DNA from: Cyanophora paradoxa CCMP329
Lineage: Eukaryota; Plantae; Glaucophyta
Length of the DNA: 64,000 bases
Direction of reading: 5' to 3'
Assembly: GCA_004431415.1 (NCBI GenBank)
Contig: QPMI01000236.1
Coordinates: 1-64,000, forward strand
This document shows, in pieces, positions 1 through 23,487 of the stretch (position 1 is its first letter; every line of letters starts with the position of its first letter). Under the pieces are notes generated by a model, which worked only from the letters and a program-made list of their open reading frames with translations, searched no databases and had not been told where the DNA came from. Both the position numbers and the translations under genes were made by a program.

Positions 1-222
1 TATGGGCGAAATCTGTGATCTGATCTTTGGTGTGAGTATGGGCAAAATCTGTGATTTGCGCTTTTGTGGAGTATGGGCGAAATCTGTTATTGGTCTTTTG
101 TGTGAGTATGGGCGAAATCTGTTATTTGGTCTTTTGGTGTGGAGTATGGGCAAAAAAATGTAATCTGGGCTTTTGTGTGAGTATGGGCAAAATCTGTAAT
201 CTGGGCTTTTGTGTGAGTGTGA
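1..222 (-). repeat. 36-bp coding tandem repeat (HTHTKAQITDFA, phage-tail-repeat-like)
   Basis: About 6 copies of gtatgggcaaaatctgtaatctgggcttttgtgtga; reads as a 12-aa HxH repeat on the minus strand. Confidence 0.9.
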
Positions 223-3200
223 TTTTGAATCCAACCTTGAACCACATTAGAGGTTGGATGATGTGGTAAATTTGCATTGCTTGTACTGTAAGGTAATCTA
301 TTACAGTTATCAGGTGAGGTTATTTTTAATCCTCTGTAAATATTCAGAGTCTGGGTATGAGTGAATCCATATTTTTGTTGAATGTAATACCTCACAGCAT
401 TCTTTTCAGAAGTTGTCAAAGCCCTATTGAAAACAATCAACTCGGAAATACCACCATTCACAATATTACCAAATCCGAAATGATTGACAGTATTATCTGG
501 TAGATAATTCGTTCCTACAAGTGTTGAATATCTTACTCATTTAACCCGACTGTGTAGCTGTTGGGAGTAATGTTTGGTCAGTGTAATACCATGTATTTAT
601 TAAAGAAGAACCGTAATAACTGGGCGGTTTGGGATACTCCATTAATAGTAAACTGGTTCATTCCAATAGCAGTAGAAGATGTTGCCCCATAATAACAATA
701 TCGTGATGGAGAGGCGCTTCTGTAAAGTCTCAAATGAACTTGCATAGAAGAGGTAGTTGGATGATATTTCCCACAAAGAAAAATGTAAGCCCATTTGAGA
801 AATCAATAGTTCTTGCAGCAAGGTATATGCATAAAAAGTGCCTGTTGGGTTTGAAACACTAATTTGGTTGTTGATTTCGGGATTGGTGTAATAGGAACTG
901 GCTCCGGAGATAAACATGTCTGGAACAACTGAATTTGGGACTCTACTTATTATAGTTGTAAACATTGCTGATTGACCTGGTTGTCCTGATGCCTCCAAGC
1001 AAAAATGCAATTGAGATATTTAATGCTGGATCAAAGCTTGCTGGGACATCATACCATTCTCTGTAAAGTTGATTTATGGTATTAAAATTACATGAACCAA
1101 CCGTAAGAATTCCATTCACTTTTAGGTTGCTGGTCTCTATGTTGCTACTGTAAATATTACTATTACCGTAAGATCTCCTGTGATTGTCCACCAACAAGCG
1201 GGAGATATTTGATAATTCCACCGCAAGTTCAGGTTTTGTTACATAATTTCCAAGCATCGCAAGAGTTACGAAATTAACGAGAATTACAGCCGTTAGGTAA
1301 TCCTCTGTGACCACTCTCGAAATAGTCTCATTGTGATATTCTTTGCAGCCATCTCTGATTGGCTTCCAGAACCCCACCATAGTTTGTTTTAATCCATGCA
1401 AGCTCTGCCCTCCCATAGTTATCATTTGCAGTTCCACTATGGAATGTAGAATATTTATCTCGACTGAATACTATCATTGGTCTTGAGCCATCTAAGCTGC
1501 TTACATCTGCTACATGAACCTGTATAGCAGAGTTGTAATTTTGTAGGTTGCTGGGTCTGTTGGGACTCTGAATGTATCTGTGGGAATGTCAGCCTCCATG
1601 TAGCTTGACACAAAGATATTTGGTATGGTTGCTCCTGGTGGTGGTGGGGTTTCAAAAGAGCCTGGTAATGTCCTAATATGAAGTGGTCCTCTCATAGCTG
1701 AATTCGCAAGTGTCCCATTCACATGTACATAGTGTTCATTCAAAAGATTCTTTCAGGGACATTGCAAGTCTGGTAAAGAGAAACCCCAAGTTATCAAGAG
1801 GCTCTACCTTTGCAAATTCTGGTTGGTCATTGATCTCATCCCAAATATGTTCATGTTTGCTTGGTGGGAACTCAGTAGGTATCCCATCAATTTCACCCCA
1901 ATCATGCCTGTGATCCTCTGGTGGATACTTTTGAGGTTTGCCTAAGATCTCATCCCAATCATGATTGTGATCCTCTGGGGATACTTTGCAGGTTTATTAT
2001 TAATTTGTTCATAATCAGGAAAGAACTCCCAGATCTCAGGTCGAAATCCATCTGGTAATAATTCCTCATGGGTTCATAAGGTTGCTCATAGTCAACAACT
2101 GGTGGATCATGACCATCTGGTAAATACTCCTCATCAGGTTCATAGTTCTGCTCATACTCATACTCTTGAGGATCTAAGCCATCTGGTAGTATCTCCTCCT
2201 CATTGGGTCATACTGATCATATTCATATTCTTGTGGGTCAAAACCATCTGGTAAATACTCCTCCTCATCTGGAACGAATTGATATTCATCAAGCTCTAAA
2301 ATATCGACTTCAGGAGGTAAATACTGCTCATCTATTTGCTTTCTGGGTTCAATTATCGGTTTATTGCGAACTTGCTCCCAACTAACAATATGCTGCCCAA
2401 AGGCTACATCTTCAGTTGCTGTGTATTCTCTCCAGGCTGCTTCTTTGGTGTTAAATCGGTGATCCCATGGAAGAGGGAAGGGAACTGGACAGGTCCATAA
2501 TACTCAAAGATCTCTCTTATGGTCTTCTCACTTACAAGCTTCTCACCATTTGCATACACATTACTGCCATGGATATTTCGCCATTGCCTGGTTCGAATTC
2601 CAAGGTCTTTCACATTGCTATACAAAGGCAAAAGGTGCCTATCCATTTCGACTAAATCAGGATGTAAATGGATTGCTACTGGTTGACTGGGGCTACTGTT
2701 GATTGTAATTGATGGCTTTTTTTGATGGACATCTTTTGGAGTAAAGAACCCAAAAGGCTCATTCTTGCAAAGTCATATGTAATATCCTTTGGTAGACATC
2801 ATTTGTGTAGGAGACCTGATTTGTGTTGGCAATGGGACCCACTTGCAATACTTGGGGGACCTCAGCTTTTGCAGTGCTGCCCTCATTGTAAATTCGCAAA
2901 GCTGTGTTCTGTTTGCCCTGCTCATCTTGAACATTGAAAATCATCGACCACTATCGAACCTGGAAGGTATATCTGGTGAGTGCCACTGGTTTTTAGTTTC
3001 CTAGGTCTCCTTCTTGTTGCTTTGATCTCTGCCACTTGGTTTGCTTTCACATTACCCAAACTAAAAGCAACACTGACCTCCTCTTTATCTGGATCGGTTT
3101 GATTCACAGATAAAGCATGCTCCCTTGATTGAGTCTTTGATGAATTATCAGAGCTGTGGTCAATCGAAACTGAACCCTTTACTTTAATATTATCAAAGTT

Positions 3201-3268
3201 CACATGCTTGGTGCTGCTTGCATTATCATCTTGAATGGTTTCTAGATTGGGTGGTAATTGAAGCTCAT
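1..3268 (-). CDS. Putative virion fibre / receptor-binding protein locus (frameshifted, possibly more than one gene; runs off window start)
   Basis: Chain of same-strand ORF fragments (2922-3320, 2759-2944, 2404-2646, 1510-1743, 943-1437, 642-1010, 87-461). Motifs: KDLGIRTRQWRNIH, LGNYVTKPEL, HxHxWxEIxGKP repeats, LamG-like end GISELIVFNRALTTSEKNAVRYYIQQKYG, and HTHTKAQITDFA repeats. Likely ATG at 3268. Confidence 0.65.
1830..2010 (-). repeat. 54-bp coding repeat (KYPPEDHxHDWxEIxGKP)
   Basis: Minus-strand translation: KYPPEDHNHDWDEILGKPQKYPPEDHRHDWGEIDGIPTEFPPSKHEHIWDEINDQP. Confidence 0.8.
2040..2330 (-). repeat. Acidic coding repeat (EEYLPDGxDPQEYEYxQ, about 22 aa)
   Basis: Four recurrences of ccatctggta at about 66-bp spacing; Glu/Asp/Tyr/Pro-rich translation. 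Confidence 0.75.
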
Positions 3269-3310
3269 GGCTTTTACTATATGGATTTATAAAATTCTGA
3301 TAAGTAAAAG

Positions 3311-4859
3311 ATGCTCTCAAGGTCGTTTTAAGTCTTTCTGGCGGGGGTGCAAGGGCATTATCATAACCAGGCTGCTAAAAGAAATCGAAAATCGAACTGG
3401 CAGAAGAGTAATCGATCTTGTGGATCTTGTAAGTGGAACTTCCACTGGTGGGATCATTGCAATAGGTTTGAATATCAGGCATCCTGATAAACCAGGTGAA
3501 CCTAAACTGACAGCAAACGATTTACACAATATTTACCTAACTCAACTGCCCTTGATTTTCGCAAATCCTCGAAATATCATCGAAAATGCCCTTTTTAATA
3601 CAAAATATGATGTGGGACCTTGGAGACTGCAATTAATTCAGTTACTGGTGAATCACTAATACAGGATTCCCTAAAGGACATTGTGATTACATCCTTTGAT
3701 ACTCAGAATATGAAACCAATATTTATCACAAATGACAACAACTACAACTTTATGCCTTGTAAGATTGCTGCTAGGGCTACTTCTGCTGCTCCTACATATT
3801 TCTCTCCTGTAAGCATTGTTGATTTCAATCGGGGAGTATTTGTCTGTCTCATTGATGGTGCCATTTCGGGAAACAATAATCCCAGTGTGTGTGGTTACAG
3901 CCATGCAAAGAAGATTTACAGTGATGATGATGATATAATAGTAATAAGTATCTCTTGTGGTGAGGTGGACCCACATTTAGAGTCTGATTATGTGGGTTAT
4001 GCTTATGAGACTGTGAACAGCTGGGGAATTCTCTCATGGATTGCCTCAACAGATGGAAGCCCATTGATTAACATGCTCATGGCTGCAAGTGAGCTTTCTG
4101 CCCTTGATAAGATGGAGGAGTTGTTACCCTACAACTATGATCAAGATTATGGTAGATACTATAGGCTATCGGTCCCTCTTCCAAACCATATAGTTAGCTC
4201 CTTGATGACACTTCTAAAATCCCAGATATGCTTTCTTTCACAGAAACCTACATTGCAGCAAACAATGATATGATCAATAAGCTTTGCAGCCTACTAGTAG
4301 CAAACTATGAACTAAAGAACCCTTCAAAGGCTTACATTTCATCCACTCTCACTACATCACCACCTTTGGATGCTAATTGGTATCAGCTTGCAGATGATGC
4401 CTTCACTGCCTCATCCTCTGTGACAGGTAAAGAGCCTTTCATGGCTAGACCTTCAGCATTTGGCTGGGAAGCTGGAGCCTATGCTCCTGAGCAGATATGG
4501 GAAACCCCACTGAATACCTTCAAGTTGCTTTCCCATACACTTTTGAACTCTCCTCTGTGATTGCCTATGGCTCAGGGGACACCAATGCTTTTATTAAGAC
4601 TTTCAATGTGGCAACATCCACTGATGGGATCAACTGGTCTTTTATTCGATCAGATGGCAAAACAAAATATATGTCTGTGAGAACATTAACAATGCTCACA
4701 ACTCTGGTGATGTGGCTCTATTGAGTGGGTTCCCTCTCAGCATCAAGGATGCTTTTTACATAGGTTTTTCTCTCAGAATTAAATATATTCGCATTTATCC
4801 CTTGTGTATGTGAATGCTCCACAATGAGAGTTGACTTTACAGGTGCCTTTATTCGATAA
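3311..4859 (+). CDS. Patatin-like phospholipase fused to C-terminal F5/8 type C (discoidin) domain (frameshifted)
   Basis: VLSLSGGGAR oxyanion loop, GTSTG nucleophile, ATSAAPTYF and LIDGA catalytic Asp. These are followed by EYLQVAF...IAYG...FNVATSTDGINW...KYIRIYP...MRVDF, typical of discoidin domains. Joins ORFs 3258-3659, 3620-4273, 4228-4560 and 4497-4724. Confidence 0.88.
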
Positions 4860-5779
4860 ACTCCAACTGAAAAGAATTATCGATTCCATTCATATCAATC
4901 AGTTCACCAAAGTAATCTTTAAACTCCACAGTGAGTTCCCTTATCACCAGGTTTCTGTCATTTATCTGAATGAATTCTGCATGTTCACCACTATGGTAAA
5001 CATAGCCACCTATATCCTTACTCAATTGCAATCTAAGGATTGCCCCTGGTTATGTGGTTGCGATTTCGGAATTATATTGTGTCTGCTGGCAAAAGGGGCA
5101 AGCTCTTTAATATGCATGTACAGATACTGCTCAGCATTCATATCAGACATCTTATTACTGGTGAAATAATACTGCAAGGGCTTTGAGGAGAGTCTGGGTC
5201 CTGAAAAGGTGGTTCCCCATGCTGGGTGATCAGGTGTAATAGGTTTGCCATCATACTTTAACAGGTTCTCAGGTCGATAGGGTGATCCACCAACAGGAGG
5301 AGTGCTATAATACCCATTGGTGTATTCAGTAGAACTCACACCCAAAAGCTTCCCTATTCTCTGGTTGCTTGCAATAAAACGAAACTCATGGTTGCTGTAA
5401 AACTCCACTTTATAGGTAGTTGGGTTATAGAATATCTTGAACTCAAAAGCTACTGTTTTGCCTGCAATGGTTTGGAAGCTTGAATAGTTCAGCCCATAAT
5501 TATAAGGGTGTGTTACCCCAAAATGACCCTGATTGATGTAGCCACTGGGAAGGGATACACTTGTTGTGTGATCACTTGGTTATATGAACCATCTTGGTAA
5601 TTAAACTGAACTGTTAGATGATCAGTTCCCACACTGTTATAGATGCTGTTTGGAATCTCTGCATATAGAACCCTGCATTCCCTTGGTCTCTCTACTGGAG
5701 TTGTGAGGGTGACCCTGTAAGAGTTTTCATTTTGTCCTTGGCTTCTATCCCTGCTATCAATATTAACGAGCCGGTTCAT
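4849..5779 (-). CDS. Minor capsid protein (penton) 1 (frameshifted)
   Basis: N-terminal VNIDSRDR...YRVTL...LYAEIPNSIYN and C-terminal YLYMHIKEL...ELTVEFKDYFGELIDMNGIDNSFQLEF, characteristic of PLV/NCLDV single-jelly-roll pentons. Confidence 0.8.
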
Positions 5780-5808
5780 TTTAATATATAAATATAGATA
5801 AAAGAAGA

Positions 5809-6813
5809 ATGCCTGTGGATTACATCGAGGTTAGCTCATTTAATACAATCTCTGGTGATGGTCCCACATCAAGCTTTGTGGCTAGACTCCCAGTAGTTAT
5901 GAGAATGTGAGGGCTGTGAGACTGGTCTCAGCCGAATTTTATAACAGTATCCCTATGGTGAGTGGTGAAACAAAGCAGGAGATGTGACAGTTGACAATGC
6001 ATTTAGCATTTATTATTCTGAACAAACTCCTGGAGCTGGAAGCTCAGGAATTCCAACAGTTCGCCCAGCTGCTGACTATGAACAATGGAAACAATTCATT
6101 ATAAGTCGAAACACCCCATCCAAAGCCACCAGCAACTGGTGAATGTAATTAACTCTAAATTCGAAGGCAGAAATCCCCAACCATCCATTCGCTGCAAATG
6201 GGATGAATCACTGAAACGAATTATATTCCACTCAGCAGTACCATTTTACTTGGCTTTCTCAGTAGCTGTGAACCCAAGCCAACAAACAATCCAAAAGCTG
6301 TTGAGTTCAGCTAGACTGCTGGGTCTTGATCCTGGAAGATATGGTAACTCCCAATCCAATCACAGGTCTATGATGCTCTCACTGATGGAATCTTTACTGG
6401 TGGTCGCGTGAATGGCATTATATCTTCTTTTGAGCCTGAGAAGACCAGGGACAGTGTTTTGTTTGTGAGAGTAAAGGAGCTGGTGATCTGGTGCAATGTG
6501 GGGATGGTCTTCTGACTGGTTACTTTCACAAAATAGTGGTCCCTGATAAAGACTATGGTGAGCATGTTGTTTACAATTCAACAGAAGCTCACCCACTTTA
6601 CAAATACTATAATAAAAAGGTTGGATTATCCACTTTCTCGGTTGATATTGTAAATGCTATTAATGAACCAATTGATTTTGAGGGTCAACCTGTTCATCTT
6701 ACCTTTGAAATTCGCTATGGTGATGAGCCAGCTGGGACCCAGTTTATGAATACTTCAAGATGCGAATGTCACAGCTTCACCCTTCCTATCCAGTTATTAC
6801 AAACTTCGCATAA
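5809..6813 (+). CDS. Minor capsid protein (penton) 2 (frameshifted; end approximate)
   Basis: MPVDYIEVSS...SFVARLP..YENVRAVRLVSAEFYNS and C-terminal LFVRVKEL...FSVDIVNAINEPIDFEGQPVHLTFEI, paralogous in pattern to penton 1. Lies directly upstream of the MCP. Confidence 0.72.
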
Positions 6814-6866
6814 ATTAAGGATCATTGGTAGATTTTTTATGTTGCAGTATAATAAAAGAGAATATA

Positions 6867-8236
6867 ATGGATATCACTTCCACTCTTCAAAGACTTTCGC
6901 TGAAAGAAGCCCTAACAACCCCAGAAGAGGCGAAAGCCTTTTTCCTGGATAACTCCCTTATGCTTGGTCTCGAATCCAAATCTAAGCCAGTTCTAGTTGT
7001 TGTGAATCCCAGCAATACTTTTGAGAATAATGTTGGAAATCGCATTTCCTTCAAGCTACCTCGCTACAATTTCTGTGGAAAACTCGAACTTGCTTTCGAC
7101 CTTCCAGCCATCACGTTTGCTGGTGATACTGACCTAGTTCGCAATGGATACACTCGCCCAGTTGGTGCTTTAGTTCAGCGACTTGAAATTACCTATGGAT
7201 CTTACACCTACCATATTCCATCTGATTTCCTTGCTCATTTCCCCCTGGTCTATTATTCGGAGGATCAACTAGCTAAAAAGAAGCGATCAATGGGCATGGT
7301 TCATGGCATCCCTGCTCATGGAACCAACCGCCTTGGTGGCTCATTCTTTGTTGAAATCCCTGTGCCTTGGCTAAATCACTACCTTCCCCTTGGTGCTTTA
7401 TCTGGTGAAATGGTTGTTACTGTTTGGTTTAAGGATGCTGGAAAGGGTTATGTTGAAACTTCCTATGGTGGTCGCTCTCTCCCTGTTGTTGGTGGGACAG
7501 TTGCTGATAAGACAGAAGATGATGGTCTTGGTGATACTGCTAATGCCACACTTGCCCATGTTGGTCAAAATATCACAACTTTCAGTCTTGGTGCAACAAC
7601 TCCTGTTATTTCTATTACTTCTCCTCGCCTTTACATGCATGCTATTAATGTTTCTGATGAGCTTTTCGCTACTGTCATTGAAAAGGTTAAGACAACTGGC
7701 ATGGCTATTCCCTCCCTTGATATTGGATTTGTAGATGCTAGTGCTTTCCCTGCCAAGGGCAATGCCCAACCCAATCGAATTAACCTCTCTCAAATCTCAG
7801 GTCTTGTATATGCTCTGCTTGTTTCAGTTCGTGATCATGAAACTGTTGACAAATCCAATGGCTCCACAGTGTTCTTAAGACCTATGCCAACTCCAAAGAC
7901 ATAACATTTACAACTGAAATAAATGGTCAGCGACTTTTTGCCACTGAGCCAATTTCCCTACTCAAAGGTGCTGAGCTAATTGCTGATGCCTTCAAATGCT
8001 CTAACATGGATAAGGTTGCTGATCGCTATGTCCTCTCAGGACTCCCATTCTGTCTTGATGGAGAAAAGGCAATTCGAAATATTGCCCAGTCTGGTTATGT
8101 TGATTTAACAAATTCCTCTTCTTCCTTCCTCACCCTCTACATGCCCTCAGATAAGGTAATCGATGTTAATGTTCGCGCTCTCATGCATAGCTTTATTATT
8201 GTCGACAAAGATGGTTTACGCAGAATTAATTTATAG
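6867..8236 (+). CDS. Major capsid protein, double jelly-roll (frameshift near 7890-7920)
   Basis: About 455 aa, beta-rich. Motifs RISFKLPR..FCGKLELAFDLPAI, ALVQRLEITYG, FFVEIPVPW..YLPLGAL...VTVWF and SGYVDL. Positioned between penton and packaging ATPase. Joins ORFs 6825-7904 and 8006-8236. Confidence 0.82.
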
Positions 8237-8301
8237 ATTGTTACGATTTTCAGTCTCCCTGCATTATTTTTATATGTCTTTATTAAGAAAGATATACAAC
8301 A

Positions 8302-9084
8302 ATGACTGATTTGGATGAATTTGTGGCTGGTGAAATGATAGAACCACCATTTCGTGTATTGGCAATAGGAAAATCAGCAACTGGTAAATCAGAAGCTGTA
8401 AAGTATTGGTTAAAGCAATTACATGATGCCAAAAAGATTGATGTTGTATTAGTTGTGAGTGGAACCAGCTTCAATCATTTCTGGGATAAAGTGGCAACAC
8501 TGCAACTGGGAAAATGGGATGCCCCTTACATTGCTAAATTGCTAGATGAGAGGCAAGAGAAAATAGAGAAAGGTGAACCTGTTAACCAATTGTGTGTGGT
8601 TTTAGATGATTTAATCGATAATGAGATAGTCGATCTCACAAGGGATAAAATAATCGGATCTCTGTATTCCAGAGGTCGCCATTCGAAAATATCCATTATC
8701 TGCATCACACAAAAGCTAAGAAAAGTCTCTTCGACTATTCGAGTAAATTCGGATTATGCAATGTTTCTAAGTGCTGCAAATCGCAAAGAACTGGAAGCCA
8801 TAGAGGAAGAATACAATATAATGCGAAATAAAGAGGATTTCTACAAGATGTTTGAAGAGTATGTTCACTCCTATCAGTATATCATTTGGTCCTCTGCAAA
8901 CTACTCAGTTAAATACTATGTAGATAAAGCTGAGCTTGTGAAAGATTTCCCATTTCCTCGCTTCCACAGGAAGCCAAAAAAGAAAGAAGATGAACTGAAA
9001 CCACCAGAGAAAGAGGAAGCCCCCAAAGAAGTGAAAAGCCAAGTCCATAGCAATAAATTGATGCGATATAAACGCGGTTTATAA
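8302..9084 (+). CDS. A32-like (FtsK/HerA superfamily) DNA packaging ATPase
   Basis: Walker A GKSATGKS, Walker B VVLDD, SRGRHSKISIICITQ motif, and IRVNSDY. Confidence 0.93.
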   Translation: MTDLDEFVAGEMIEPPFRVLAIGKSATGKSEAVKYWLKQLHDAKKIDVVLVVSGTSFNHFWDKVATLQLGKWDAPYIAKLLDERQEKIEKGEPVNQLCVVLDDLIDNEIVDLTRDKIIGSLYSRGRHSKISIICITQKLRKVSSTIRVNSDYAMFLSAANRKELEAIEEEYNIMRNKEDFYKMFEEYVHSYQYIIWSSANYSVKYYVDKAELVKDFPFPRFHRKPKKKEDELKPPEKEEAPKEVKSQVHSNKLMRYKRGL

Positions 9085-9112
9085 AATTATCTCTCATTCT
9101 AATAAAGATACA

Positions 9113-9847
9113 ATGCCTCCCAAACGAAAGATAGGGATCCCAGCTGGGGCTGTTGGCTATTCAGGTGGTGGAAACAATGGATCCATTAACACAGACCCAC
9201 TGAAATTCAATGGTATGAATGAAGTGAAGCCCTCTCAACAACAAGAAGACCCCCTCAATGCTGCCTATGAGGAATCATTTGATGACAAAGCCCCACAGGC
9301 TTCAACCAGTGACCAACTCAACATTTCACCTGAAGCCTCAAAGATGAAGGCTGTTGCTGAGGGAGCCAGGCGAATTATTGGTGCTGCTGATGATAAAGGT
9401 TTAGGCTTGCAAGATCTATCACTGGCTCGCAAAGGTGAGGGTCTCAGTAAAGAATCAGACAAGGTAATCCAGTCTATGGCTGGTGAAGTCACATATAAGA
9501 CTGCTCCCACTCAAAATATTCATCGAATTCCCAAGGCTCAATGGGATGAGATGACTGCTAAACTCAAAGATCTGGAAGCCAAATCAAGTGCCTTGGAGCA
9601 GTATGTTACTGAGAAGAAAGAGAGAGCCAAGCTAAAGGAGATGCTTCGAAAGGAAGTTTATAAAATGGGCATTACTGGTGTCCCAGATAAACAGTTTATT
9701 GCTAAGAAAGAGAACCAAATCGATGAGCAGGCAGTAGATGAAATGAAAACAAAGACCCAGAAGGGAACCATTGAACCTGGTGCCACTAAAGCTGAAGTAG
9801 AAAAGGGAGTAGCTCCCACAGTATATAAAAGACGAGTTTGGCTTTAA
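9113..9847 (+). CDS. Hypothetical viral protein (charged, coiled-coil; possible core protein)
   Basis: Intact 244-aa ORF, tightly packed, with the shared upstream TAATAAAG motif. Confidence 0.7.
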   Translation: MPPKRKIGIPAGAVGYSGGGNNGSINTDPLKFNGMNEVKPSQQQEDPLNAAYEESFDDKAPQASTSDQLNISPEASKMKAVAEGARRIIGAADDKGLGLQDLSLARKGEGLSKESDKVIQSMAGEVTYKTAPTQNIHRIPKAQWDEMTAKLKDLEAKSSALEQYVTEKKERAKLKEMLRKEVYKMGITGVPDKQFIAKKENQIDEQAVDEMKTKTQKGTIEPGATKAEVEKGVAPTVYKRRVWL

Positions 9848-9869
9848 TTATCTCTGTTTTATTAGAGAC

Positions 9870-10142
9870 ATGGATATAATACGAAAGTTTTTCGAGATGT
9901 TCAGTCTGCATGTGGTGAGCAATTGCCACAGTGGATGCTGTGAGACAAGAGTGGAGTTTGAGATGTCAGATACTGAGGATAATGCCTCAGAAGCAAGAGA
10001 GAGAAGGAGGTCTACGATTTCTGTGGAGTCAATGCCAGCAGACCCCACAGAGTATACATATGAGCAACAGGAGTATCCAAGGAGAAGTTCTCTGCCAGCA
10101 GAAAACGTTTTCTCTGGGAATATAAATGGAGGACACTATTAG
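9870..10142 (+). CDS. Small hypothetical viral protein with CxxxCC motif
   Basis: 90-aa ORF containing SNCHSGCCE after an amphipathic N-terminus; upstream TATTAGAG. Confidence 0.6.
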   Translation: MDIIRKFFEMFSLHVVSNCHSGCCETRVEFEMSDTEDNASEARERRRSTISVESMPADPTEYTYEQQEYPRRSSLPAENVFSGNINGGHY

Positions 10143-10371
10143 TTTAATCGAGTTTACCAGTGATGAACCTGTTACTGAGGGTTCTATTAGACACATTCTA
10201 GCAATGCAGAAACGATATAGAGAGGACCCAGCATATAGAGAGTATAAAAAGCAGCAAGCCCTGGCATCCTATTATCGCAGAAAAGCCCAAAAAGAGGAGC
10301 AGAGACCCAGAGGTAGACCAATTAAATATTATTTGCCTACTGAAAGTAGCAATGGACCCCCAGGTCTATAA
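10126..10371 (+). CDS. Small basic AT-hook DNA-binding protein
   Basis: RYREDPAYREYKKQQALASYYRRK helix followed by RPRGRP AT-hook. Confidence 0.7.
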   Translation: MEDTISLIEFTSDEPVTEGSIRHILAMQKRYREDPAYREYKKQQALASYYRRKAQKEEQRPRGRPIKYYLPTESSNGPPGL

Positions 10372-10523
10372 GATAATTGAGAAAAAGCGGTCTCAGTATG
10401 CCACTGAGGCAGCTATAAAAGTTTACAGACAGGAACTGGTGTTCGCAACAAAAAATGACTTAAGGAAAAAGTAGATAGATTGTATTGAGGAAAAATTATT
10501 TTCGTATCTACTATTAAAGAGAA

Positions 10524-10849
10524 ATGCCGAATATCCGCAAGATACTCACAGATGATGAAAAAGCAGAGAAGCTGAGACTGAAAAGGGAGCAAGATGCCCA
10601 AAGAAAACGCGAAGCCTATCATAAAAAGAAGCAGGAACGATTATCCAAGGAGCCGCTACAGTTCACACACCAGAAGAACTCAAAAAGATTGCCCTCAGAC
10701 ACCAGAGGAAATACAGGGAAAATGAAGAATATCGCGAGCAAAAAAAGGCAAAAGCGCTGGAATATTACCACAAGAAGAAAGATGAACAGCCCAAGAAACC
10801 CAAAGAGCATAAACCGGTTGGAAGACCTCGGAAATATATCGAAGAATAA
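10524..10849 (+). CDS. Small basic AT-hook-like DNA-binding protein (frameshift near 10645)
   Basis: After one frame correction it reads RKYRENEEYREQKKAKALEYYHKKK...VGRPRKYIEE*, paralogous to 10126-10371. Confidence 0.65.
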
Positions 10850-11066
10850 ATTCTCGATCGAAACAAATTTTGTAGAAATCGATTTGATCGGAGGCAAAAA
10901 AATGACAGCTTTCTTCCCTCTTTTTTAAAACTGTACCTATATATCGAGACAGTATCCCGACCCAAAACTACTTAAGGACTTGGCAAATAATAGGATATAT
11001 ATAAAAGACAATTCCTCCTTCCGAAATTATTTTCTTCGTTAAAGGTAGAAGTCCCCAAAATCGAAA

Positions 11067-13659
11067 ATGAACAAAATCGAGAAATTCGCCACCCCTGTTG
11101 AAAATGCTACATTCCTTAGTACTCTCATTGGTGATCGCAACAAGGTCACCCATGTATTTGATTCTGCCGAAGATGCCCTTGAAGCCATTGATAATAGCAA
11201 GGTTAAGACCTGGGCTGAATGCATTCAACCTGAGCAAGTGACCAGAGTTTACCTGGACCTGGATAAATTCGCTGATTTGAAGGAGAACATTGCTGATAAC
11301 TATGCTGAGGCGGAAACTGTTGTAAGAGAGATGAGAGATAAGCTATGGAAGCGATCTGGTACCACTTCTATTAACGATATTGCTGTTGCAGTTCGCCATA
11401 GAAGGGTTTATTTGATTAAGGAGGATGTCACCAAGTTCAAGATTTCAGCCCACTTTATTATTAAATCGCTTGCATGCAAACATGAAGATATCCCAAGCTT
11501 TTCAAAGCGATGGGATTGGTGAAAAATGAGGATTATGACAGTGGAGTTTACAGCTCCACACAGAACCTAATCTGCCTCAATTGCTGCAAAGGTGAGACTC
11601 TGGATGCTCAAAATAAGTCGAAAAAAGATGTTGATAAAAACGTTTGCTTTAAGAAATTCGTTGACTGTGACAAAGTGTTAATGCGAAATGAGGACTTCTT
11701 TGTATCTTACTTCTCAGCTACTACTAAACTTGTGGATGAATCAAATATTTCTGCATTTGCAAATTATACTCCTGAGCCAAAACCAGTTAAAAAGGAGCCA
11801 AAAAGTGATAAAGTGAAGACTGAGAAGGTAGAAGCTGAAAAAGACACTGAACCCGAAAATCCTGTTACTTTCGAACTGCTACAAAGTGTTATAATGGGTC
11901 TCAATGCTGAAAGAGCCAGCGAGTATAAGACTTGGATTGATGTTGGACTGGTCATCATCAATGTTGGGGAAGACAACAAATTTACCCCTAAAATGCAGGC
12001 TGAACTCTTCCACCAATTCTCAGAACAGAGTGACAAGTATGATTATGATGAATGCCAGGAAAAGTTTACACAGCTTTGCAGAAGCAAGAAGAAGGCTGAG
12101 CCTGGCAAAGTGTTGACCTTCAAATCCTTGGTTTATTGGTTGAGCAAAGATAACAATGAGCTTTTCAAGGAACTCTTCCCCAAAAAGTATGCATTCCTAC
12201 CAGAGGACACAGATGAAATCGATTACAAGACTGCAAGTATCCCTCCTTTGGCTGAACATTACAATGTGCATAAGAGGTATTTCAATGCTCGCATGCATCA
12301 TGTTGAAAATGTTGGTTGTGTGATGCTCTGGGATGAACAACTACTTTGCTGGATGCCCAAAGACATTGGAAAACTGTCTACAAAGCATTTCCCCACTTGA
12401 TGCATAAGGTGATTGTGAATGAGGGGACAGATAATGAGAAAGAGAAATGGGAGCAATCATTTAGGAAATGGATTGTGGATCCAACAGCCACAAGATCAAC
12501 TTACATGGATTTCCTCCCACCTCCTGCTACTCTCAGTGCAAAATGCAAGTCTGTATTTAATCTCTATCCAGGAATGAAGGTCGACCATCAGCAATTCGAA
12601 AATGCTCCAGAGGATGTAACTGCTGAGATGATTAAGCCTTTCCTTGATCACTTGTTCTTAATGTCTGGTGAGGATCAAAATACCTATGAATATCTGTTGA
12701 AATGGTTTGCCCACATGCTGCAAAAGCCTGGGGAACTCAATGGAGTATCCTTAATCTTCATTGGTGAACAGGGAACTGGTAAGAATGTGTTGGTTGATAC
12801 TTTCCAAAAGAAGATACTTGGAGATGCCCTGAGTTATGCAACTGGTAAGCCAAAAGAGGATCTGTTTGGTCGATTTGCCCACAATAGAGAGGATAAGATC
12901 TTGATTGTTGTGAATGAAGCCTCAGGCAAGGACACATTCGAAAATAATGATATGCTTAAAGATCTCATTACTTCTGATAAGATTGTTATTGAACACAAAG
13001 GGATAGATTCATACACAAAAAGCAACTTTGCCAGGATTATATTCACCAGCAATAACAACATTCCAGTTAAAATTGAAGCTGGAGATAGGCGATTTGTGGT
13101 TGTTGAAGTTAGTAAGAAATTCGCAAAGGATAGGTCATACTTCCTTCCACTTGTAAAATGGCTTAATGATCACTGCAATATTCGAAACATTGCCCACTAT
13201 TTGAGAACCAAAGTTGAATGTGAGGATGTGAACTGGATTGCTGATAGACCCCTTACAAATAAATACTATTTAGCCCAGCAGGTGTGCGCTCCAATCATCC
13301 TTATGTTCACTAAGTGGCTTGTGGATCGAGGCTTAATTTCCGAGAATAAATGCAAGTCTGGTAGCCTTGTGGAAACCTGGAAATGGTTCCAGGAGTTCAT
13401 TACCAGCAATAAATATAAAAACGATTATAATAGTCGCAGATATTATACAGAAATGCGAAGTGTTACATATATCCAAGTGAAAACTACAAATGGTAAACAA
13501 TACTATCATTTCCTATTCCCACAAGTATTTGAGGAATTCAGAAAGATGAAGCTTGTAGATGATGAGACCATTGAGGAAGAAGCTAATCCAAGGATGAAAC
13601 AAGAACTACCTGCTGCTGATCCTGATGCATCAGATTATGACTCTGATGTTGAAGTTTAG
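11067..13659 (+). CDS. AEP primase - PriCT-2 - SF3 (D5/DUF5906-like) helicase fusion (two frameshifts, near 11500 and 12370)
   Basis: AEP motifs RVYLDLD, KISAHF and DSGVYS. PriCT-2-like segment ASEYKTWIDVGL...FHQFSEQSDKYD. Helicase Walker A GEQGTGKN, Walker B VNEA, IIFTSNN and DRRF. Confidence 0.9.
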
Positions 13660-13668
13660 GTTTACTCA

Positions 13669-13851
13669 AAAGTGGACTCACAGTTGACTCAAATTTATCA
13701 TAAAAGACCCAAACAGTCTTTTATTTATGGTTTATTTATCGATTAGGTTGACTAAGTGGGGGGAGTTGACTCATTTTTTCACAGATTCTAAAAGAGGACT
13801 CTGCCCTAAAAAGAAATAAAAAGTGCCTCAACTCCACCCACTAAGTCAACC
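13669..13851. promoter_or_regulatory. Iteron/inverted-repeat module 1 (candidate replication origin)
   Basis: aaagtggactcacagttgactca, then a 24-bp inverted repeat ggttgactaagtggggggagttga (13746) / tcaactccacccactaagtcaacc (13828), immediately after the helicase stop codon. Confidence 0.6.
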
Positions 13852-13918
13852 AAAAAATGATTTAAGAGATAGAAAAATATATTTATATGTAACTAGTAAG
13901 AAATGGCTGGAACAGATC

Positions 13919-15766
13919 ATGCTAAAGAAAGAGTCCAAAGCTAGAGAACTAATCGATTTCCTGTTCACCAATATTCCAATGAATGAACTCACAGATGAGC
14001 AAAAGGCTATTTACAGGGCTACTAAACACTGTTACCTTTGCAGTGAGAGGTTCACTAAGGAAAACTTCAAATGCAGAGATCATGATCACCACACAGGTAA
14101 TTACATTGCACCTGCATGCAGAAACTGCAATCTCCATAGGAGAATCTCAAAGCAAACCAAAGTTGCAGTTGTTGTTGACCAAATGGATGACTGTGGGACA
14201 TTCATTTTCAGAAAAATAGCAGGCATGGGTGATAAAAAGCGAATCGAAATCCTTTCGAAAAACTTTGATCAATACCTTTCATTGCAATGGGGTCTTTACA
14301 AGTTCATTGATGCAAGTAATTTTATGGAATTTGGGGCTGCTGATGTAGATGAGTTAATGGACAAATTCCAAGCCTTCAGAAGGCTTTCACACACAGTATA
14401 TGGATTGGACCCAGTTCATTATGTATCTGCACCTGGGTTATCTTGGGATGCTATGCTTAGGACCACCAAGGCAAAAATAGAGCTTATAAGTGATGTAGAG
14501 CAATACGAATTTGTTGAGAGGGGAATCAGGGGTGGCTTTGCAACAATGCCTTGTAGGTATGCTGAGGCTGATGGTGAGAACTCCCATATAATGCTGTTTG
14601 ATGCTAACAACTTGTATGGCTACTGTTTGAGTCAGCCAATCCCAGTTGGTGATTTTAGATGGGAGACCGAATTCAACCCACAAGATAACAGATCCAGTTT
14701 CCTGGAAGTTGATCTGGATTACCCAATTAGGCTATATCTAGACCACAGTGATTTCCCCCTAATTATTAACAAGAAAATAATAGATTATGCCGAATTATCA
14801 CAATATCAAAAGAGCCTATTAGATCTCTCAGGAGAAGAGCTTGATAAGACCCCTAAGCTAACTGCAACCTTTGGTTCTGTGACCAACTATGTGATTTCTG
14901 AGCCTCTTCTACAGTATCTGTTGGACAAAGGGGTGAAACTAAAGAAGGTTCACAGGGTCCTATCATTTACTGTGGCTCCTGTAATGAAACCCTACATTGA
15001 GCTGAATACTGAGATGAGAAGGAAAGCAGTGAATAAATTCGAGGCTGATTTCTATAAACTCATGAATAACTCAATCTATGGGAAATGCATTGAATCTTGC
15101 AGAGGTAGATCTGTGGTTAAGATTGCAAACAGTGAGAAACTGTTTATGAAATATGCAGCCTCCCCATTGGTGAAATCAACAAGTCCCATAAACGAAAAAG
15201 CAGTTGCCTTTGAGTTTTACACAAAGCATGTGAAGCTAGATAAGCCAGTTGCTATTGGGGCTTATGTTCTGGATGCAGCCAAACTGCATAACTACAAGTT
15301 CTTCTATGATACTGTAAGGTCCCAATGGACAAAAGCAAAGTTACTATTCCATGATACTGACTCCTTTTGTCTATATATCGAATCTAAGACCCTACAAAAA
15401 GATATAGAGAATATATCCTTTAATCTGGACTTAGGAGGACCTAACAGAATGACCCCAGGTAAATACAAAAATGAAATGCCAGGTTCTGCTATATTGGAGT
15501 ATGTGGGTCTCAGAGCCAAAGTTTACAGTTTCAGAACTGCTGAGATTGAGAGAAGTAAGCTATCTGGGACTTCCACTGAGGAACTCCAATTTAATGATTT
15601 TAAGCAGTGTTTATTTGCAGGTATCAGCAAGACTGTGACTGCAAAGCAGAAGAGAAGGGCAGATCACACAATAATAGATACTGTGAGTAGAAGGGTTGCC
15701 CTAAACTGCTTTGATGCAAAGAGATACATCTTACCAGATGGTATTAATTCTGTTCCTTTTAATTAA
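13919..15766 (+). CDS. Polinton-type family B DNA polymerase with EndoVII-like Zn motif and degenerate exonuclease domain
   Basis: CYLC...RDHDHHTGNYIAPACRNCN; YGLDPVHYVSAPGLSWDAML; IRGG; motif A FDANNLYG, motif B KLMNNSIYGK, motif C HDTDS; KVY. The true start may be ATG 13903 with a frameshift; the frame is open from 13823. Confidence 0.92.
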   Translation: MLKKESKARELIDFLFTNIPMNELTDEQKAIYRATKHCYLCSERFTKENFKCRDHDHHTGNYIAPACRNCNLHRRISKQTKVAVVVDQMDDCGTFIFRKIAGMGDKKRIEILSKNFDQYLSLQWGLYKFIDASNFMEFGAADVDELMDKFQAFRRLSHTVYGLDPVHYVSAPGLSWDAMLRTTKAKIELISDVEQYEFVERGIRGGFATMPCRYAEADGENSHIMLFDANNLYGYCLSQPIPVGDFRWETEFNPQDNRSSFLEVDLDYPIRLYLDHSDFPLIINKKIIDYAELSQYQKSLLDLSGEELDKTPKLTATFGSVTNYVISEPLLQYLLDKGVKLKKVHRVLSFTVAPVMKPYIELNTEMRRKAVNKFEADFYKLMNNSIYGKCIESCRGRSVVKIANSEKLFMKYAASPLVKSTSPINEKAVAFEFYTKHVKLDKPVAIGAYVLDAAKLHNYKFFYDTVRSQWTKAKLLFHDTDSFCLYIESKTLQKDIENISFNLDLGGPNRMTPGKYKNEMPGSAILEYVGLRAKVYSFRTAEIERSKLSGTSTEELQFNDFKQCLFAGISKTVTAKQKRRADHTIIDTVSRRVALNCFDAKRYILPDGINSVPFN

Positions 15767-15885
15767 GAGATGCCAGCAACTGGAAGAATAGTTAGAAGAA
15801 CCACTGAGCAACTGCAAGGTAACCTACTGCCCATCACAATTCCAAAGGAGGAAAAGGGGAATCTCGAATTGTAAAAAAGTCAGAG

Positions 15886-17154
15886 ATGAAAGAGCTTGTC
15901 CCAGTAGAGATCCCAGTTGCTATTGCAGTGAAAGAAACCAGCAAGATTGCCAAGAGATTCTATGATGTGAGAACTGGTTACAAAGGGCTTCAAGCTATGA
16001 GGGCTGAGTTACCTGATGAATCCTATAAGCAGTTGCAAGAGTTCTATAAAAAACAAGAGGTAGTTCAGATCAATGCACCAGCTATATCTAGGAAGAGAGA
16101 TCCCATGGTTCCAATTAGGCAGCCCCTTGATACCTATGTGATTGATTTGCTCTTTTTCCCAGCTTATAAGAAACAAAACAATGGCTATGATACCTTTATG
16201 ACTGCAATGGAATCTACACTGAGAACTGGGTATATCATACCTATAAGGGATAAATCAGCTCTCACTACATTAGCTGCATTTAAACAGCTTGAAATGAGAG
16301 TGGCAAGACCAATAGTAAAAGTTCAATCAGATGCTGGGAGTGAATTCCAAAATCGAATATTCCAGGAGTATTTATCTAGTAAATTCATAGAACACCAAGT
16401 GAGTGGAACTGCTGACCATAGAAGCCAAGGTCGAATTGAAGCCTTTAACAAGCAGATTAAGAGACTGATCACAAACTATTGCATAGCTAATAACACAGCT
16501 AGATTCTTTGATGTGTTAGGTGATATTGAGTATAATTACAATAATACAGTTCACTCAGCTACTAAGATGAAGCCAGGCGAAACTACAGAGGAGCATTATA
16601 GGTATATAGTGGGATTAGAAGATGAAAGATTCAAGAAATCAATAGCTTACCTTGATACCATGCAGCCTGGCATGTTTGTTAGAGTGAAAGTTGAGAAGAA
16701 CCCCTTTGCTAAACAGGGTAACAATTGGTCTAGGATGGTTTACACTGTTGATAGTAGGGAAGGCTTTAAGTTTAAGCTAAGGAGTCCCACTGGAGAGATC
16801 ATAGATAACAGGTTTGCATTCCATGAGCTGTTGCCTGTGAATGCAGTTGAATATCTAGAAACCCCTACAGTGGATGCCTTAGAGCAAGCCAAAGAGGAAG
16901 CTAGGGTTGATGCTGCTATAAGGAGAGAGGGCATAGAAGCTGCTAATGAAGTCCCAGATAAGCCTTTGATAGAGGCTAGAAAGGACAAGGCTGGGAAAGT
17001 TAGCAGGGAACTCAAAAAGCTCACCATAGCAGGCACACAGAAACTTTCAGAAGTGAATAGCCAGAGGTGGTATAATGACTTTCAGACTACTAAGGAGTCA
17101 TATACAGCCCCTAAACCTCAAAGAACACTAAGAGAAAGGACCAAAACTAGCTAG
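15886..17154 (+). CDS. Retroviral-like (rve, DDE) integrase of Polinton type
   Basis: YVIDLLF (D), QSDAGSEF (D), QGRIEAFNKQIK (E), YNNTVHSATKMKP and a C-terminal GMFVRV...FAK...NWS..VYTV. May start at ATG 15770 with a frameshift. Confidence 0.93.
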   Translation: MKELVPVEIPVAIAVKETSKIAKRFYDVRTGYKGLQAMRAELPDESYKQLQEFYKKQEVVQINAPAISRKRDPMVPIRQPLDTYVIDLLFFPAYKKQNNGYDTFMTAMESTLRTGYIIPIRDKSALTTLAAFKQLEMRVARPIVKVQSDAGSEFQNRIFQEYLSSKFIEHQVSGTADHRSQGRIEAFNKQIKRLITNYCIANNTARFFDVLGDIEYNYNNTVHSATKMKPGETTEEHYRYIVGLEDERFKKSIAYLDTMQPGMFVRVKVEKNPFAKQGNNWSRMVYTVDSREGFKFKLRSPTGEIIDNRFAFHELLPVNAVEYLETPTVDALEQAKEEARVDAAIRREGIEAANEVPDKPLIEARKDKAGKVSRELKKLTIAGTQKLSEVNSQRWYNDFQTTKESYTAPKPQRTLRERTKTS

Positions 17155-17522
17155 TTTCATAGCCGAAAACTCGTTTTTTCCAAATATATGTATGTGTGAT
17201 ATACATATATGCATATGATATACACATCAACGTGTAGATCTTCTCAAGCGCTTCACAACGCTATGCAGAACGCTGCAAGTTGACTATCTGGTGATGAGAT
17301 ACAAGCGTTTGAAGATGCCGATTATCGATTTTTCGAGATTTCGGAATGATGCATCATAATGATGTAATAATGATGTATCATAAACATATAACATATATAT
17401 ATCGCCGTGATCGTCATGATCTCCCGAGTTCGATGGTGTGTCATATATATCATATACATTTGCATCGTCATTATGACATCATTTCGTAAAATTACACGTC
17501 CGTCATCGTCTTTTTCCGCAGC

Positions 17523-17731
17523 GAACAGATAAGTGAACAGTTAAGGAGACAACTATTGTAATAGTGGACTGCAACAACAATTGAAAACAAGATATGCGGG
17601 AAAGCTATTGAAAGACAATGAAGCAAATTGCGAACAATTAAGTGAACAGTTAAGTGGACACCTGTTGGGAGTAGGCAGTGTCTACTCGTTTATCGTGAAA
17701 CGGTGTCCACTTAACTGTTCATTTAACTGTT
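17523..17731. repeat. 12-bp iterons (AACAGTTAAGTG) forming a 30-bp inverted repeat
   Basis: aacaattaagtgaacagttaagtggacacc (17633-17662) versus ggtgtccacttaactgttcatttaactgtt (17702-17731); an extra direct copy at 17523. Confidence 0.8.
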
Positions 17732-17948
17732 GACGAAAACCCATGCATTATGACATCATATCATTAAACCACATACAAAACACTAAAATGCATGTATCTC
17801 TTCACCAACTCATCATGTGACAAAACCAAAAACAGATTCGGAATCCTCTTAACGAGGCCTGCCTGACGATGTAAGTATCATAGGCTCAATAATTCATATG
17901 TTTATAAGCATCTCCCCTTGATTCCCCCTATTATATAATATTTATATT

Positions 17949-18385
17949 AAAGTGGACTCAAGGTTGACTCATATTAATCGTAAAAGTAGTAATAGTATAT
18001 GGATTTTGTTACGAATTCAATGCAAGGGTTGACTAAGTGGGTTGAGTTGACTCAAATTTCACAGGAAATATTTGGGACCTAAAGTTTTCTAAAAAGGATT
18101 TCAAAAAATGTGTCAACTCCCCCCACTTAGTCAACCCTGACCATAAACAGTAAGGATTTGAGCTAACAAGTATCACAAAGTGAACATTTTGAGTCCACTT
18201 AGAAGATCCACTTTTGAAATCCAAGTTGATTTTGCTTGAAATTTCAAAGTTGATCTAAAAGTGAGTCCACCCTGATTGATTATGGTAACAAAGTTGACTA
18301 AGTTGACTAAGTTGAGTCATCTTAAGAAATTCAAAGAGACTAAGAGTTCAAAATGTTTATGAAAAGTGAGTCAACTTAGACCACT
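17949..18385. promoter_or_regulatory. Iteron/inverted-repeat module 2 (candidate replication origin)
   Basis: aaagtggactcaaggttgactca, an inverted repeat at 18025-18051 / 18112-18138, and further aagttgact / gagtccac copies to 18385. Same architecture as 13669-13851. Confidence 0.6.
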
Positions 18386-18397
18386 TATGATAACAAA

Positions 18398-20088
18398 GTC
18401 AGGCGAAGCCTCTTTCTCAAACCCAAAAACCGCCGACCGAAATTCCTTTTTTAACCTTTTTTTCCACTCGAGATCCCCCCTGCTAAATAATTTCCGTGTC
18501 ACACTCCCTCGAAGCAGAATTATTAATTCTGCCTCGACACGGACGCGATTGATGGACATTACACAGCTGCCCGAACCGCCACAGACCCCTCTAGATCCAT
18601 TTTTAGCGTCCTGGCTCCCCTAAGACGACCGCTCCCCCGTGGGCGTCGCGCGAAAATCGAATTTCCCTCTGGATCAATTCCGGTACTTAACCCCCGACAA
18701 ACACAGTCCGAGTCAGAAGGTGGGACCCGGTCCCGCCCGGTCCCGCGACGAAATCGCGCCAGGGACGCCCCAGAACGATACAGAATGACGCGCGAGGGCG
18801 AGCGCATCGCCGCAAGCTCGATTTCGGGCGCCCTCGATTCTCCAGTCCGAAGAATCGGCCGAACATTTGATCCGGCCGGTCCCGCCCGGTCCCGCGACGC
18901 GCGCAATCGATGCGTACCGGCGCGCATAGACATAGCAGGGCCTGCGCACCCCCGAAATCCGCTTTCGGAGCCAGAGCAGCGCAGGAAGGCTCCCGACGGC
19001 AAAAAATCGATCCTGCACAGTCCCGGGCAACTTTCCGCGCGCCGACGCCGCGGCGCATGCGCGGATCGATAGCATAAGCATTTGAGATGTAGGAGAAGCC
19101 TTTTGCACGGTCTCTAAATGCGCCGGGCCACGAGGACCCAGCCGACCCCGAAAATTCGATCCTCTACAGACCTGAAGACCTGTTCTTGCGCCCTCGCATC
19201 CTCGCGCATGCGCATCGCTACAATATTCATTTCACATTTTATTGAAGCCTTCCACAAGCTTTGAAGACGCGGAAGAGCACGAGAACCCAGCCGACGGCAA
19301 AAAATCGATTCTGAACAGACCCGGACATCTTTCCGTGCGCCAACGCCGCGGCGCATGCGCGGAACAATATGATAAGCATTTCAGATGTAGACAAAGCCTT
19401 CCGCACGCATTGCAGATGTGCCGGGCCGCGAGGACCCAGCCGACGCCGAAAATTCGATCCTGGACGGACCTGCACAGCTTTCCGCGCGCCCTCGCATCCT
19501 CACGCGTGCGCATCCCTACACTAGTAATTTGAGATCTTTCTTAAGCTTTTCGCGAACTCTAAAGATGCGCATGAATCCAGCCGACCCCGAAATAAAAGAT
19601 GAATCCAGCTGAATCGCGAACTCTAAAGATGCGCATAAAGATGCGACAGGGCGCGAGAATCCAGCCGACCCCGAAAATTCGATCCTGGCCAGGCCTGCAA
19701 AGCTTTCCGCGTGCCCTCGCCTCCGCAGCCCCGCACATCGATGCTATATGCATTCAAGATTCTGTTTAAGCGATTCGCAAGCTCTGTGCATGCGTCTGGC
19801 CTTGAGAATCTCGCCCCTCCCGGGCCTCCCTCTCAACAATATTATATAATTCATCTCCTCTCAACTTGCTCCGGCATCCCTTTATTTCCTCAGTACATTA
19901 ATATTCCTCTAGTTATATTCCTCTAGCCGGCCAGCGCTGGACAAGTACTGGCCGTCAGCCAGCCAGCTTCCGGATCCAGCCAGAAAGCTGTTCGCGATCG
20001 GCCAGGCCGCTGGCCAGTGCCCTATAGGCCTACTGTGACAGCCGCGAGGGCGTCCGCGAGGCTTCGCCGTACTTAGTGCTCCGCAGGA
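18398..20088 (+). mobile_element. Non-autonomous Helitron2/Helentron-like element, copy 1 (3' end clipped)
   Basis: 5' GGCGAAGCCTC near the start, subterminal GAGGCTTCGCC followed by a truncated hairpin, and internal ~150-bp tandem repeats. Confidence 0.6.
18990..19730 (+). repeat. ~150-bp internal tandem repeat with alternating a/b subunits
   Basis: gccgac...aaaattcgatcc recurs at about 18993, 19141, 19290 and 19439; mirrored in copies 2 and 3. Confidence 0.8.
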
Positions 20089-20246
20089 ACCCAAAAACCG
20101 CCGACCGAAATTCCTTTTTTAACCTTTTTTTCCACTCCAGATCCCCCCTGCTAAATAATTCCCGTGTCACACTCCCTCGAGGCAGAATTATTAATTCTGC
20201 CTCGACACGGACGCGATTGATAGACATTACACGGCTGCCCGAACCC

Positions 20247-22766: not shown

Positions 22767-22933
22767 CTCTTTGAAGAGAATGGGGCTCAATCTAGATCGA
22801 TCTGCTCCACCCTCTTTGAAGAGAATGGGGCTCAATCTAGATCGATCTGCTCCACCCTTTAGCGAAAGTTCGATAATTAAGAGCTCAAATGAATACTCTC
22901 ATGGGGCTCAATCTAGATCGATCTGCTCCACCC
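22767..22933 (+). repeat. 45-bp tandem repeat (about 2.7 copies)
   Basis: ctctttgaagagaatggggctcaatctagatcgatctgctccacc twice, plus a partial copy at 22901. Confidence 0.85.
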
Positions 22934-23410: not shown

Positions 23411-23487
23411 TCACACATATGAATATTCATATTTTAATCCTGAGGCGGAACGCCGAGGGATTAAAATATGAATATTCATATGTGTGA
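23411..23487. repeat. Perfect 30-bp inverted repeat (hairpin) with 17-nt loop
   Basis: tcacacatatgaatattcatattttaatcc / ggattaaaatatgaatattcatatgtgtga. Confidence 0.92.

Follow-up and report, generated by a model that had tools for sequence, protein, structure and literature searches.

The protein-primed DNA polymerase (pPolB) of Polintons and their relatives has been described as a chain of terminal protein (TP), vOTU, exonuclease and polymerase domains (TP-vOTU-EXO-PALM), with loss of the exonuclease accompanying the gain of a helicase (10.1101/2024.03.18.585575). The Polinton-like viruses (PLVs) that encode AEP-S3H primase-helicase fusions usually have a tyrosine recombinase and no PolB, and elements with two replicases bracketed by repeats, one of them on a Cyanophora paradoxa contig, document replicase turnover (bioRxiv 10.64898/2026.10.13.758929). 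We analysed a 64,000-nucleotide stretch of DNA, positions 1 to 64,000 of contig QPMI01000236.1 (QPMI01 is the prefix of the C. paradoxa assembly), hereafter called the window. Its leftmost 18 kb are almost certainly part of an endogenous PLV, the alga likely being C. paradoxa. We read this element, with some reservation, as one in which a 3.5-kb cassette encoding an AEP-SF3 primase-helicase replaced the front of PolB and took over replication.

The locus resembles several described systems in part. It shares with Polintons and adintoviruses that have an EndoVII-bearing pPolB the polymerase palm, the order PolB then rve integrase (loci L001-L005), a penton, a major capsid protein (MCP) and a packaging ATPase, but has no TP or vOTU, no exonuclease, a different MCP and, in the visible part, no protease. 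With mavirus-like virophages it has in common an exonuclease-less pPolB, a separate S3H helicase and rve, whereas the PolB of mavirus still has TP and vOTU, and 10.1101/2024.03.18.585575 does not present the mavirus helicase as an AEP fusion. The AEP-S3H PLVs have the same AEP-PriCT2-SF3 architecture of ~860 aa (the closest, P0129, has 871 aa and 38% identity over the helicase) and differ from the window in their recombinase and their want of a PolB. The multi-replicase polisuviruses, including EVE_QPMI01_83, have, like the window, a module of PolB and DDE integrase beside an AEP gene, with repeats between; EVE_QPMI01_83 is given as three tandem elements in the text, where the words 'truncated' and 'exonuclease' have 0 occurrences. 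Other PolB-helicase pairings have been reported (PMC12721341 and PMC13215967), among them an Oxyrrhis fusion with no detected TP or vOTU that keeps the exonuclease. Among partial viral-contig loci reaching at most 10 kb a side, 0 of 31 with this PolB type carry an AEP-SF3 relative, and of the 80 helicase loci covered, out of 278, none carries a PolB core and one gives a short match to the EndoVII-type region.

The PolB of the element (13919..15766, + strand) is a 615-aa Polinton-type polymerase with an EndoVII insert (Pfam DNA_pol_B_2, E 3e-14; Endonuclease_7, E 7e-5). It starts ~500 residues into the alignment with relatives of 1200-1300 aa, and what it lacks is the N-terminal part in which TP, vOTU and ExoI reside in other members of the family. 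Among 25 long PolB frames from viral contigs, 23 measure 1164-1854 aa and the other two 846 and 857 aa. A profile of the N-termini of such polymerases, which matches 62 of 120 homologues, has no significant match among the element's 525 six-frame segments (best E 0.31). Further in, ExoII is degenerate and ExoIII deleted (the patterns are present in 101 and 111 of the 120 homologues, respectively), and EndoVII lies 175 aa from motif A, compared with 275-342 aa in 74 of the 76 homologues in which this distance was measurable. Motifs A, B and C are intact, with A-B and B-C distances of 152 and 97 aa (medians 161 and 98), and the TPR1/TPR2 spacing is normal. An initial annotation of this DNA had called the gene a Polinton-type PolB with intact catalytic motifs, which holds for motifs A, B and C, as it does for the D-D-E residues of rve; it had missed that the enzyme is not a normal one, being without TP region and exonuclease. 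The protein has neither the TP-vOTU-EXO-PALM order of a pPolB nor the TP-vOTU-PALM order of the mavirus type, from which it departs by the absent N-terminal region and the retained EndoVII insert. Its palm is 30-41% identical to EndoVII-bearing pPolBs (best matches 35-41%), and in a FastTree phylogeny of 84 of 86 sequences, including 60 of the 120 homologues, it forms a long unsupported branch with no close relative, so we claim no donor. A sequence search of the PDB with PolB returned just an EndoVII-type nuclease (E 0.011), and a single-sequence fold with a pLDDT of 31 was left unused.

What precedes PolB differs among copies of the element. Between 60 and 68% of the words of 9000-18900 are present in 14 sequencing runs of one organism from 2012-2024, and in each of four DNA runs 4653-9942 short variant contigs mapped to the element plus 1.4 kb of flank. 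These thousands of contigs indicate many diverged copies, and the virus is probably integrated many times in the genome of the alga. Short-read contigs part from the window at two loose ends, one following 10420 and the other preceding 13931. The interval between these loose ends (10421..13930, + strand) is a cassette of lower depth, present in a minority of copies, that comprises a basic ORF (10524-10849), the AEP-PriCT2-SF3 gene, a palindrome and the opening four codons of the PolB reading frame. Summed contig depth over ~10500-13860 is about a quarter of that of neighbouring blocks in all four DNA runs; single-contig depths suggest a cassette share of up to about 40-50%, and single contigs of run X3 have a depth of 3281 within the cassette, compared with 8533 at 9010-9189. 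Upstream of 13931, other copies have ten stop-free codons in the PolB frame, which match a helix of the family in register, so that these copies have a less truncated PolB; the interval 10421-13930 is therefore AEP-SF3 where other copies bear a longer PolB start. Copies with and without the swap are >88% identical outside the cassette. We rejected 'cassette absent' as a description of the other copies in favour of 'different DNA there', as no listed joint simply skips the cassette, and likewise a clean insertion via the 16-bp direct repeat at 10449 and 13851, since the loose ends lie instead at 10420 and 13931.

The main gene of the cassette (11067..13659, + strand) is predicted to encode an AEP primase-polymerase, PriCT-2 and an SF3 helicase, with PriCT_2 (E 2e-9) and DUF5906 (SF3, E 1e-21; both Pfam) in one chain. 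The AEP domain has no Pfam or BLAST match, and pairwise and profile comparisons with it were negative; Atlas places it in AEP_C962R clusters at 0.96. Within it, RVYLDLD, ISAH and DSGVY are what we take to be the DxD, SxH and D catalytic motifs, which together with Atlas point to an AEP catalytic domain. A full AEP-SF3 beside PolB, as the initial annotation had it, is borne out by Pfam and Atlas; that the block occurs in only some copies had escaped it. The reading frame breaks near 11491 and 12390, and short-read contigs have one extra base at each place. Among 20 listed differences in this gene 17 are synonymous and three non-synonymous, against a chance expectation of ~20% synonymous; judged by these sequence differences, the gene is under purifying selection. 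Behind it lies the palindrome (13669..13854, z -5.4), a 68% identical copy of 17949-18136 and a predicted origin or relic terminus; its motif gave no match in the viral contigs searched.

We consider the cassette swap, as seen in the window, likely. Given the swap, it is fairly probable that PolB is no longer needed, and the full proposal, that the 3.5-kb AEP-SF3 cassette replaced the PolB front, that AEP-SF3 replicates the genome and that PolB is a remnant, is one we believe slightly more than we doubt. The SF3 ring would load onto the internal palindrome (13669-13854), the terminal one or both and unwind the duplex, and AEP would prime and extend, as is thought for AEP-S3H fusions in other PLVs. 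Integration of the ends would fall to rve, the capsid would consist of MCP and pentons and be filled by the A32 ATPase, while the fibre and the patatin-discoidin protein may serve attachment and membrane entry; all these enzymatic steps we infer from the known families. As TP is absent from PolB, this polymerase cannot protein-prime alone. The start context of PolB and a contig of X15, both described below, also speak for this reading.

Several observations weigh against a swap that left PolB idle. All 615 codons of PolB form an uninterrupted frame that preserves DANNLY, KLMNNSIYGK and HDTDS; its listed differences lean synonymous (9/17, p 0.012, mostly from one contig), which fits a PolB in use; and the cassette carries an in-frame ATG four codons before the PolB junction. 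The AEP assignment comes from Atlas and motifs rather than from an alignment, and the synonymous and non-synonymous counts come from the best-supported differences (40 of 480; 40 of 138), which are not a random sample. Summed depth is no copy number according to the tool that reports it, and the depths compare blocks of the element with one another rather than with a single-copy control. For the other copies just 30 upstream letters are visible, among them an in-frame ATG, so those copies may be short too. Finally, no contig among those listed bridges 10420/10421 or 13930/13931, so the link between cassette and PolB rests on the window assembly.

The unbroken frame, the synonymous lean and the start codon that the cassette supplies four codons from the junction are also what a two-enzyme, nucleic-acid-primed replisome would lead one to expect, in which AEP-SF3 unwinds and primes and the TP-free PolB extends. 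So are motifs A, B and C with their normal A-B and B-C spacing, and exonuclease loss accompanies helicase gain in mavirus and Tlr1-like proteins as well (10.1101/2024.03.18.585575). An intact frame is, however, expected after any recent swap, and AEP-S3H is the sole replicase in many PLVs. The start context of PolB is poor: the context typical of the element surrounds an ATG at 13903, which does not lie in the PolB frame, and is missing at the in-frame ATG (13919). The one long RNA-type contig over PolB belongs to another copy, with 30 differences and a departure at 15585. We regard the two-enzyme replisome as possible, though rather unlikely. The same doubt attaches to the picture it would imply, of a protein-primed polymerase that has lost TP and proofreading domain, been converted to the use of primers and works with an acquired AEP-SF3 and a palindromic origin, a living multi-copy intermediate between protein priming and primer-based replication beside sisters with a longer PolB.

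As to the runs guessed to be RNA, the contig just mentioned has 1305 letters and a depth of 43.7, covers 14464-15585 and continues into unrelated DNA, and contigs of the terminal region have depths of 36-124. Two such runs contain parts of PolB, rve and the terminus at low depth and barely touch the cassette, from which neither expression nor silence follows.

It is improbable that the assembly created the junction as a chimera of similar repeat copies, or that it marks a one-off dead recombinant or an AEP-type PLV joined in tandem to a transpoviron-like PolB-rve unit, with the palindrome at 13669-13854 as a relic end. A misjoin would be favoured by the thousands of short variant contigs in each run (4653-9942), by the want of a bridging contig among those listed and by a low-depth contig of X15 that tracks the cassette to 13921 and then passes into other DNA; a composite would explain why the internal palindrome resembles the terminal one, and such a composite has been described for a C. 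paradoxa contig (bioRxiv 10.64898/2026.10.13.758929). But the capsid and PolB-rve blocks are alike in their high depth while the AEP block is in the minority, which makes AEP look like the guest. The ORF at 10352 continues past 10420 in other copies as a diverged form of the same small ORF, as in an allele swap, and the variable stretch at 17200-17900 has a contig depth of ~2900, like that of the cassette (~3000-3300), as expected of one subfamily.

Least probable is that protein priming was kept, with TP encoded separately (in ORF 9113 or the left part of the element) or supplied in trans by sister copies and SF3 assisting the unwinding as in mavirus: a TPR1-length spacing is kept, adenoviruses and one coral polinton encode TP in a gene of its own (10.1101/2024.03.18.585575) and the highest-ranking, non-significant match of the N-terminal profile fell in ORF 9113 (E 0.31), but the visible element has no significant TP/vOTU match, and there would be no need for a complete AEP kept by purifying selection. 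ORF 9113 (9113..9847, + strand) encodes a 244-aa charged protein with no significant family match, in which 3/3 listed differences are synonymous; from its sequence it could conceivably be a core protein or a stand-alone TP. It is followed by three small ORFs on the + strand (9870..10474, namely 9870-10142, 10126-10371 and 10352-10474), in the last of which other copies diverge after 10420.

Frame shifts interrupt the majority of genes to the left of PolB in the window. At listed places, the two AEP-SF3 breaks among them, short-read contigs have an additional base. All 18 one-base differences examined (12 of 81 in one comparison and six DNA entries of 11 in another) adjoin the same base, and the breaks are probably long-read errors of the kind reported for other elements (PMC10120064). 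Degradation was rejected as their main cause for this reason, with the proviso that contigs pooling many copies cannot prove this copy intact.

Integration of the element in host DNA is seen in the 14 runs, in a contig of run X17 that joins 18179-18399 to DNA matching the window from 23149 onward, and in paralogues that sit deep within long host contigs. The initial annotation had left room for contamination; we rejected this on the runs of one organism, the contigs and the host-contig paralogues. Its AT-rich block with a double jelly-roll MCP, A32 ATPase, patatin-discoidin, AEP-SF3, PolB and rve stands, as does its description of an endogenous PLV in a glaucophyte. GC content is 0.37-0.43 across 1-18399 and 0.57-0.79 in most DNA beyond, and the left edge of the window cuts the element inside a coding repeat. 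Pfam comparison covered 34 ORF pieces of the element, none of which matched an Ulp1/adenain protease; the pieces are short and the left part of the element lies outside the window.

The MCP (6867..8236, + strand, two pieces) has no Pfam match; it is 54% identical to P0001, a C. paradoxa protein and its only close database relative, whose profile both pieces match. A model of P0001 (pLDDT 55) matches the PBCV-1 MCP Vp54 (E 1e-15, TM about 0.5) and ranks PBCV-1-type capsids above Sputnik, and Atlas agrees with the assignment, so that the window protein is modelled, through this paralogue, as a double jelly-roll MCP. Beyond P0001 its true relatives among 1.84 billion representatives number four, at 27-38% identity. 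Distant relatives in the same range, P0122 and P0124-P0128, are found on Logan/ENA contigs of 1-12 kb, which are possibly related viruses of other hosts; P0123 was dropped as a spurious match to a repeat protein. Viral contigs searched with MCP, helicase and ATPase as single queries yielded no relatives and those searched with a distant MCP relative no match, and a metagenome scan gave 2 short weak loci only. The A32-type packaging ATPase follows (8302..9084, + strand; Pox_A32, E 6e-11, Pfam).

Two pentons had been annotated. Penton 1, a minor capsid protein (4852..5779, - strand), is recovered in three pieces in profile order (E 7e-5, 6e-7 and 6e-4), and penton 2 (5809..6800, + strand, in pieces) is probable, with one piece at E 0.004 and three others ordered but non-significant. 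The single jelly-roll penton assignment comes from sequence, by a home-made profile built from 34 viral-contig ORFs and seeded with 4 ORFs chosen by a motif. The patatin-like phospholipase fused to a discoidin (F5/8) domain (3267..4810, + strand, frame-shifted pieces; Patatin E 1e-6 and 1e-4, F5/8 discoidin 3e-7, Pfam) has the GTSTG and DGA motifs. The gene or genes at 1..3248 (- strand), broken by many frame shifts, probably encode a fibre or receptor-binding protein, a fibre having been proposed; Pfam PTR, under its cut-off at E 0.006, and a PHROG virion structural protein at E 0.005 lend this weak support. A 36-bp tandem repeat at 1-218 encodes a short peptide repeat and continues past the window edge, and acidic 65-bp and shorter repeats (DEEEYLPDG-type peptides) occupy 1736-2400. 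A separate allele of low depth exists for the fibre-like region at 188-1320 (its contig depth in X3 is 1497, that of the cassette ~3000), so copies vary in the receptor-binding part too.

To the right of PolB, the rve (DDE) integrase has an open frame (15886..17154, + strand; rve E 2e-4, under the curated cut-off), and its D-D-E residues align with 4 relatives. It is followed by a non-coding, CpG-rich stretch that varies among copies in contig comparison (17155..17904) and by a palindromic terminal region (17905..18399, z -7.5), the probable right end, of which 17905-18070 is found behind other DNA in two RNA-type runs. The X17 contig places the right end at ~18399, more likely than the 18397 first annotated (range 18397-18399). 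Host genes do not adjoin the virus, as had been thought: a 4.7-kb GC-rich host repeat block with 149-bp units (18400..23147, non-viral by repeat and contig comparison) intervenes, which probably entered afterwards and so separated the end of the virus from 23149. This block is nested, partly inverted and of very high contig depth, begins with CA and finishes with TG, and resembles a family of non-autonomous DNA transposons; run X17 has an empty-site-like junction for it. The stretch 23149-23520, which is AT-rich and CpG-rich, contains 27/55-bp repeats and what seems to be a hairpin near 23420-23485, and may belong either to the host flank or to the viral terminus. The CpG observed/expected ratio is host-like, 2.5, from 23149 onward, and viral genes are CpG-poor (0.06-0.43). 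By module it is 0.14 in PolB, 0.06 in rve, 0.22-0.43 in the capsid-side genes, 0.33 in AEP-SF3, 0.96 in the 5' part of the cassette and 1.1-1.3 in the host; these differences may record host methylation and different residence times. Beyond lie an ATG17-like autophagy gene (27233-29008, - strand, E 4e-27), a Hydin/CFAP65-like multi-Ig flagellar gene with many short introns (29700-46000, by similarity) and, at 56700-63000, a host gene in tandem duplicate, ~3.6 kb apart, with blocks 87-96% identical and no Pfam match, which is presumably F-box/LRR-like. A search for tRNA genes found none.

The virus is not undescribed, as the initial annotation had suggested. Its MCP lineage is in Bellas et al. 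2023 (PMC10120064), where 366 C. paradoxa MCP hits, P0001 included, fall into two clusters labelled new (272 + 94) rather than the Maverick-Polinton columns; Table S2 includes P0001 and a tig00021571 MCP that by eye matches 49 of the first 60 residues of the window MCP. MCPs are listed there, and replication genes are not described in the text and tables examined. Glaucophyte discoidin and patatin fusions, with a suggested entry role, are in PMC12220804, PolB- and integrase-bearing relatives from C. paradoxa contigs in PMC8502044, and two-replicase elements in bioRxiv 10.64898/2026.10.13.758929. The literature searched held no isolated glaucophyte virus and no published account of a PolB that lacks TP and exonuclease and lies next to AEP-SF3, though supplements, figures and subscription papers may hold one. 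The lineage is thus already catalogued, and the replication module is apparently undescribed: what is new is the shortened, exonuclease-less PolB together with an AEP-SF3 block that is a minority cassette.

If PolB is merely decaying, the locus illustrates well a replicase mosaicism that has been described before. In the evolution of PLVs and virophages, the exchange of pPolB for a primase-helicase fusion is a central step, though a mostly inferred one. Here the cassette appears to land on the TP part of PolB, which would make the swap datable and testable within one genome, that of a culturable alga. The locus would also add a further, apparently independent loss of the exonuclease beside a helicase, in this case in an EndoVII-bearing Polinton polymerase.

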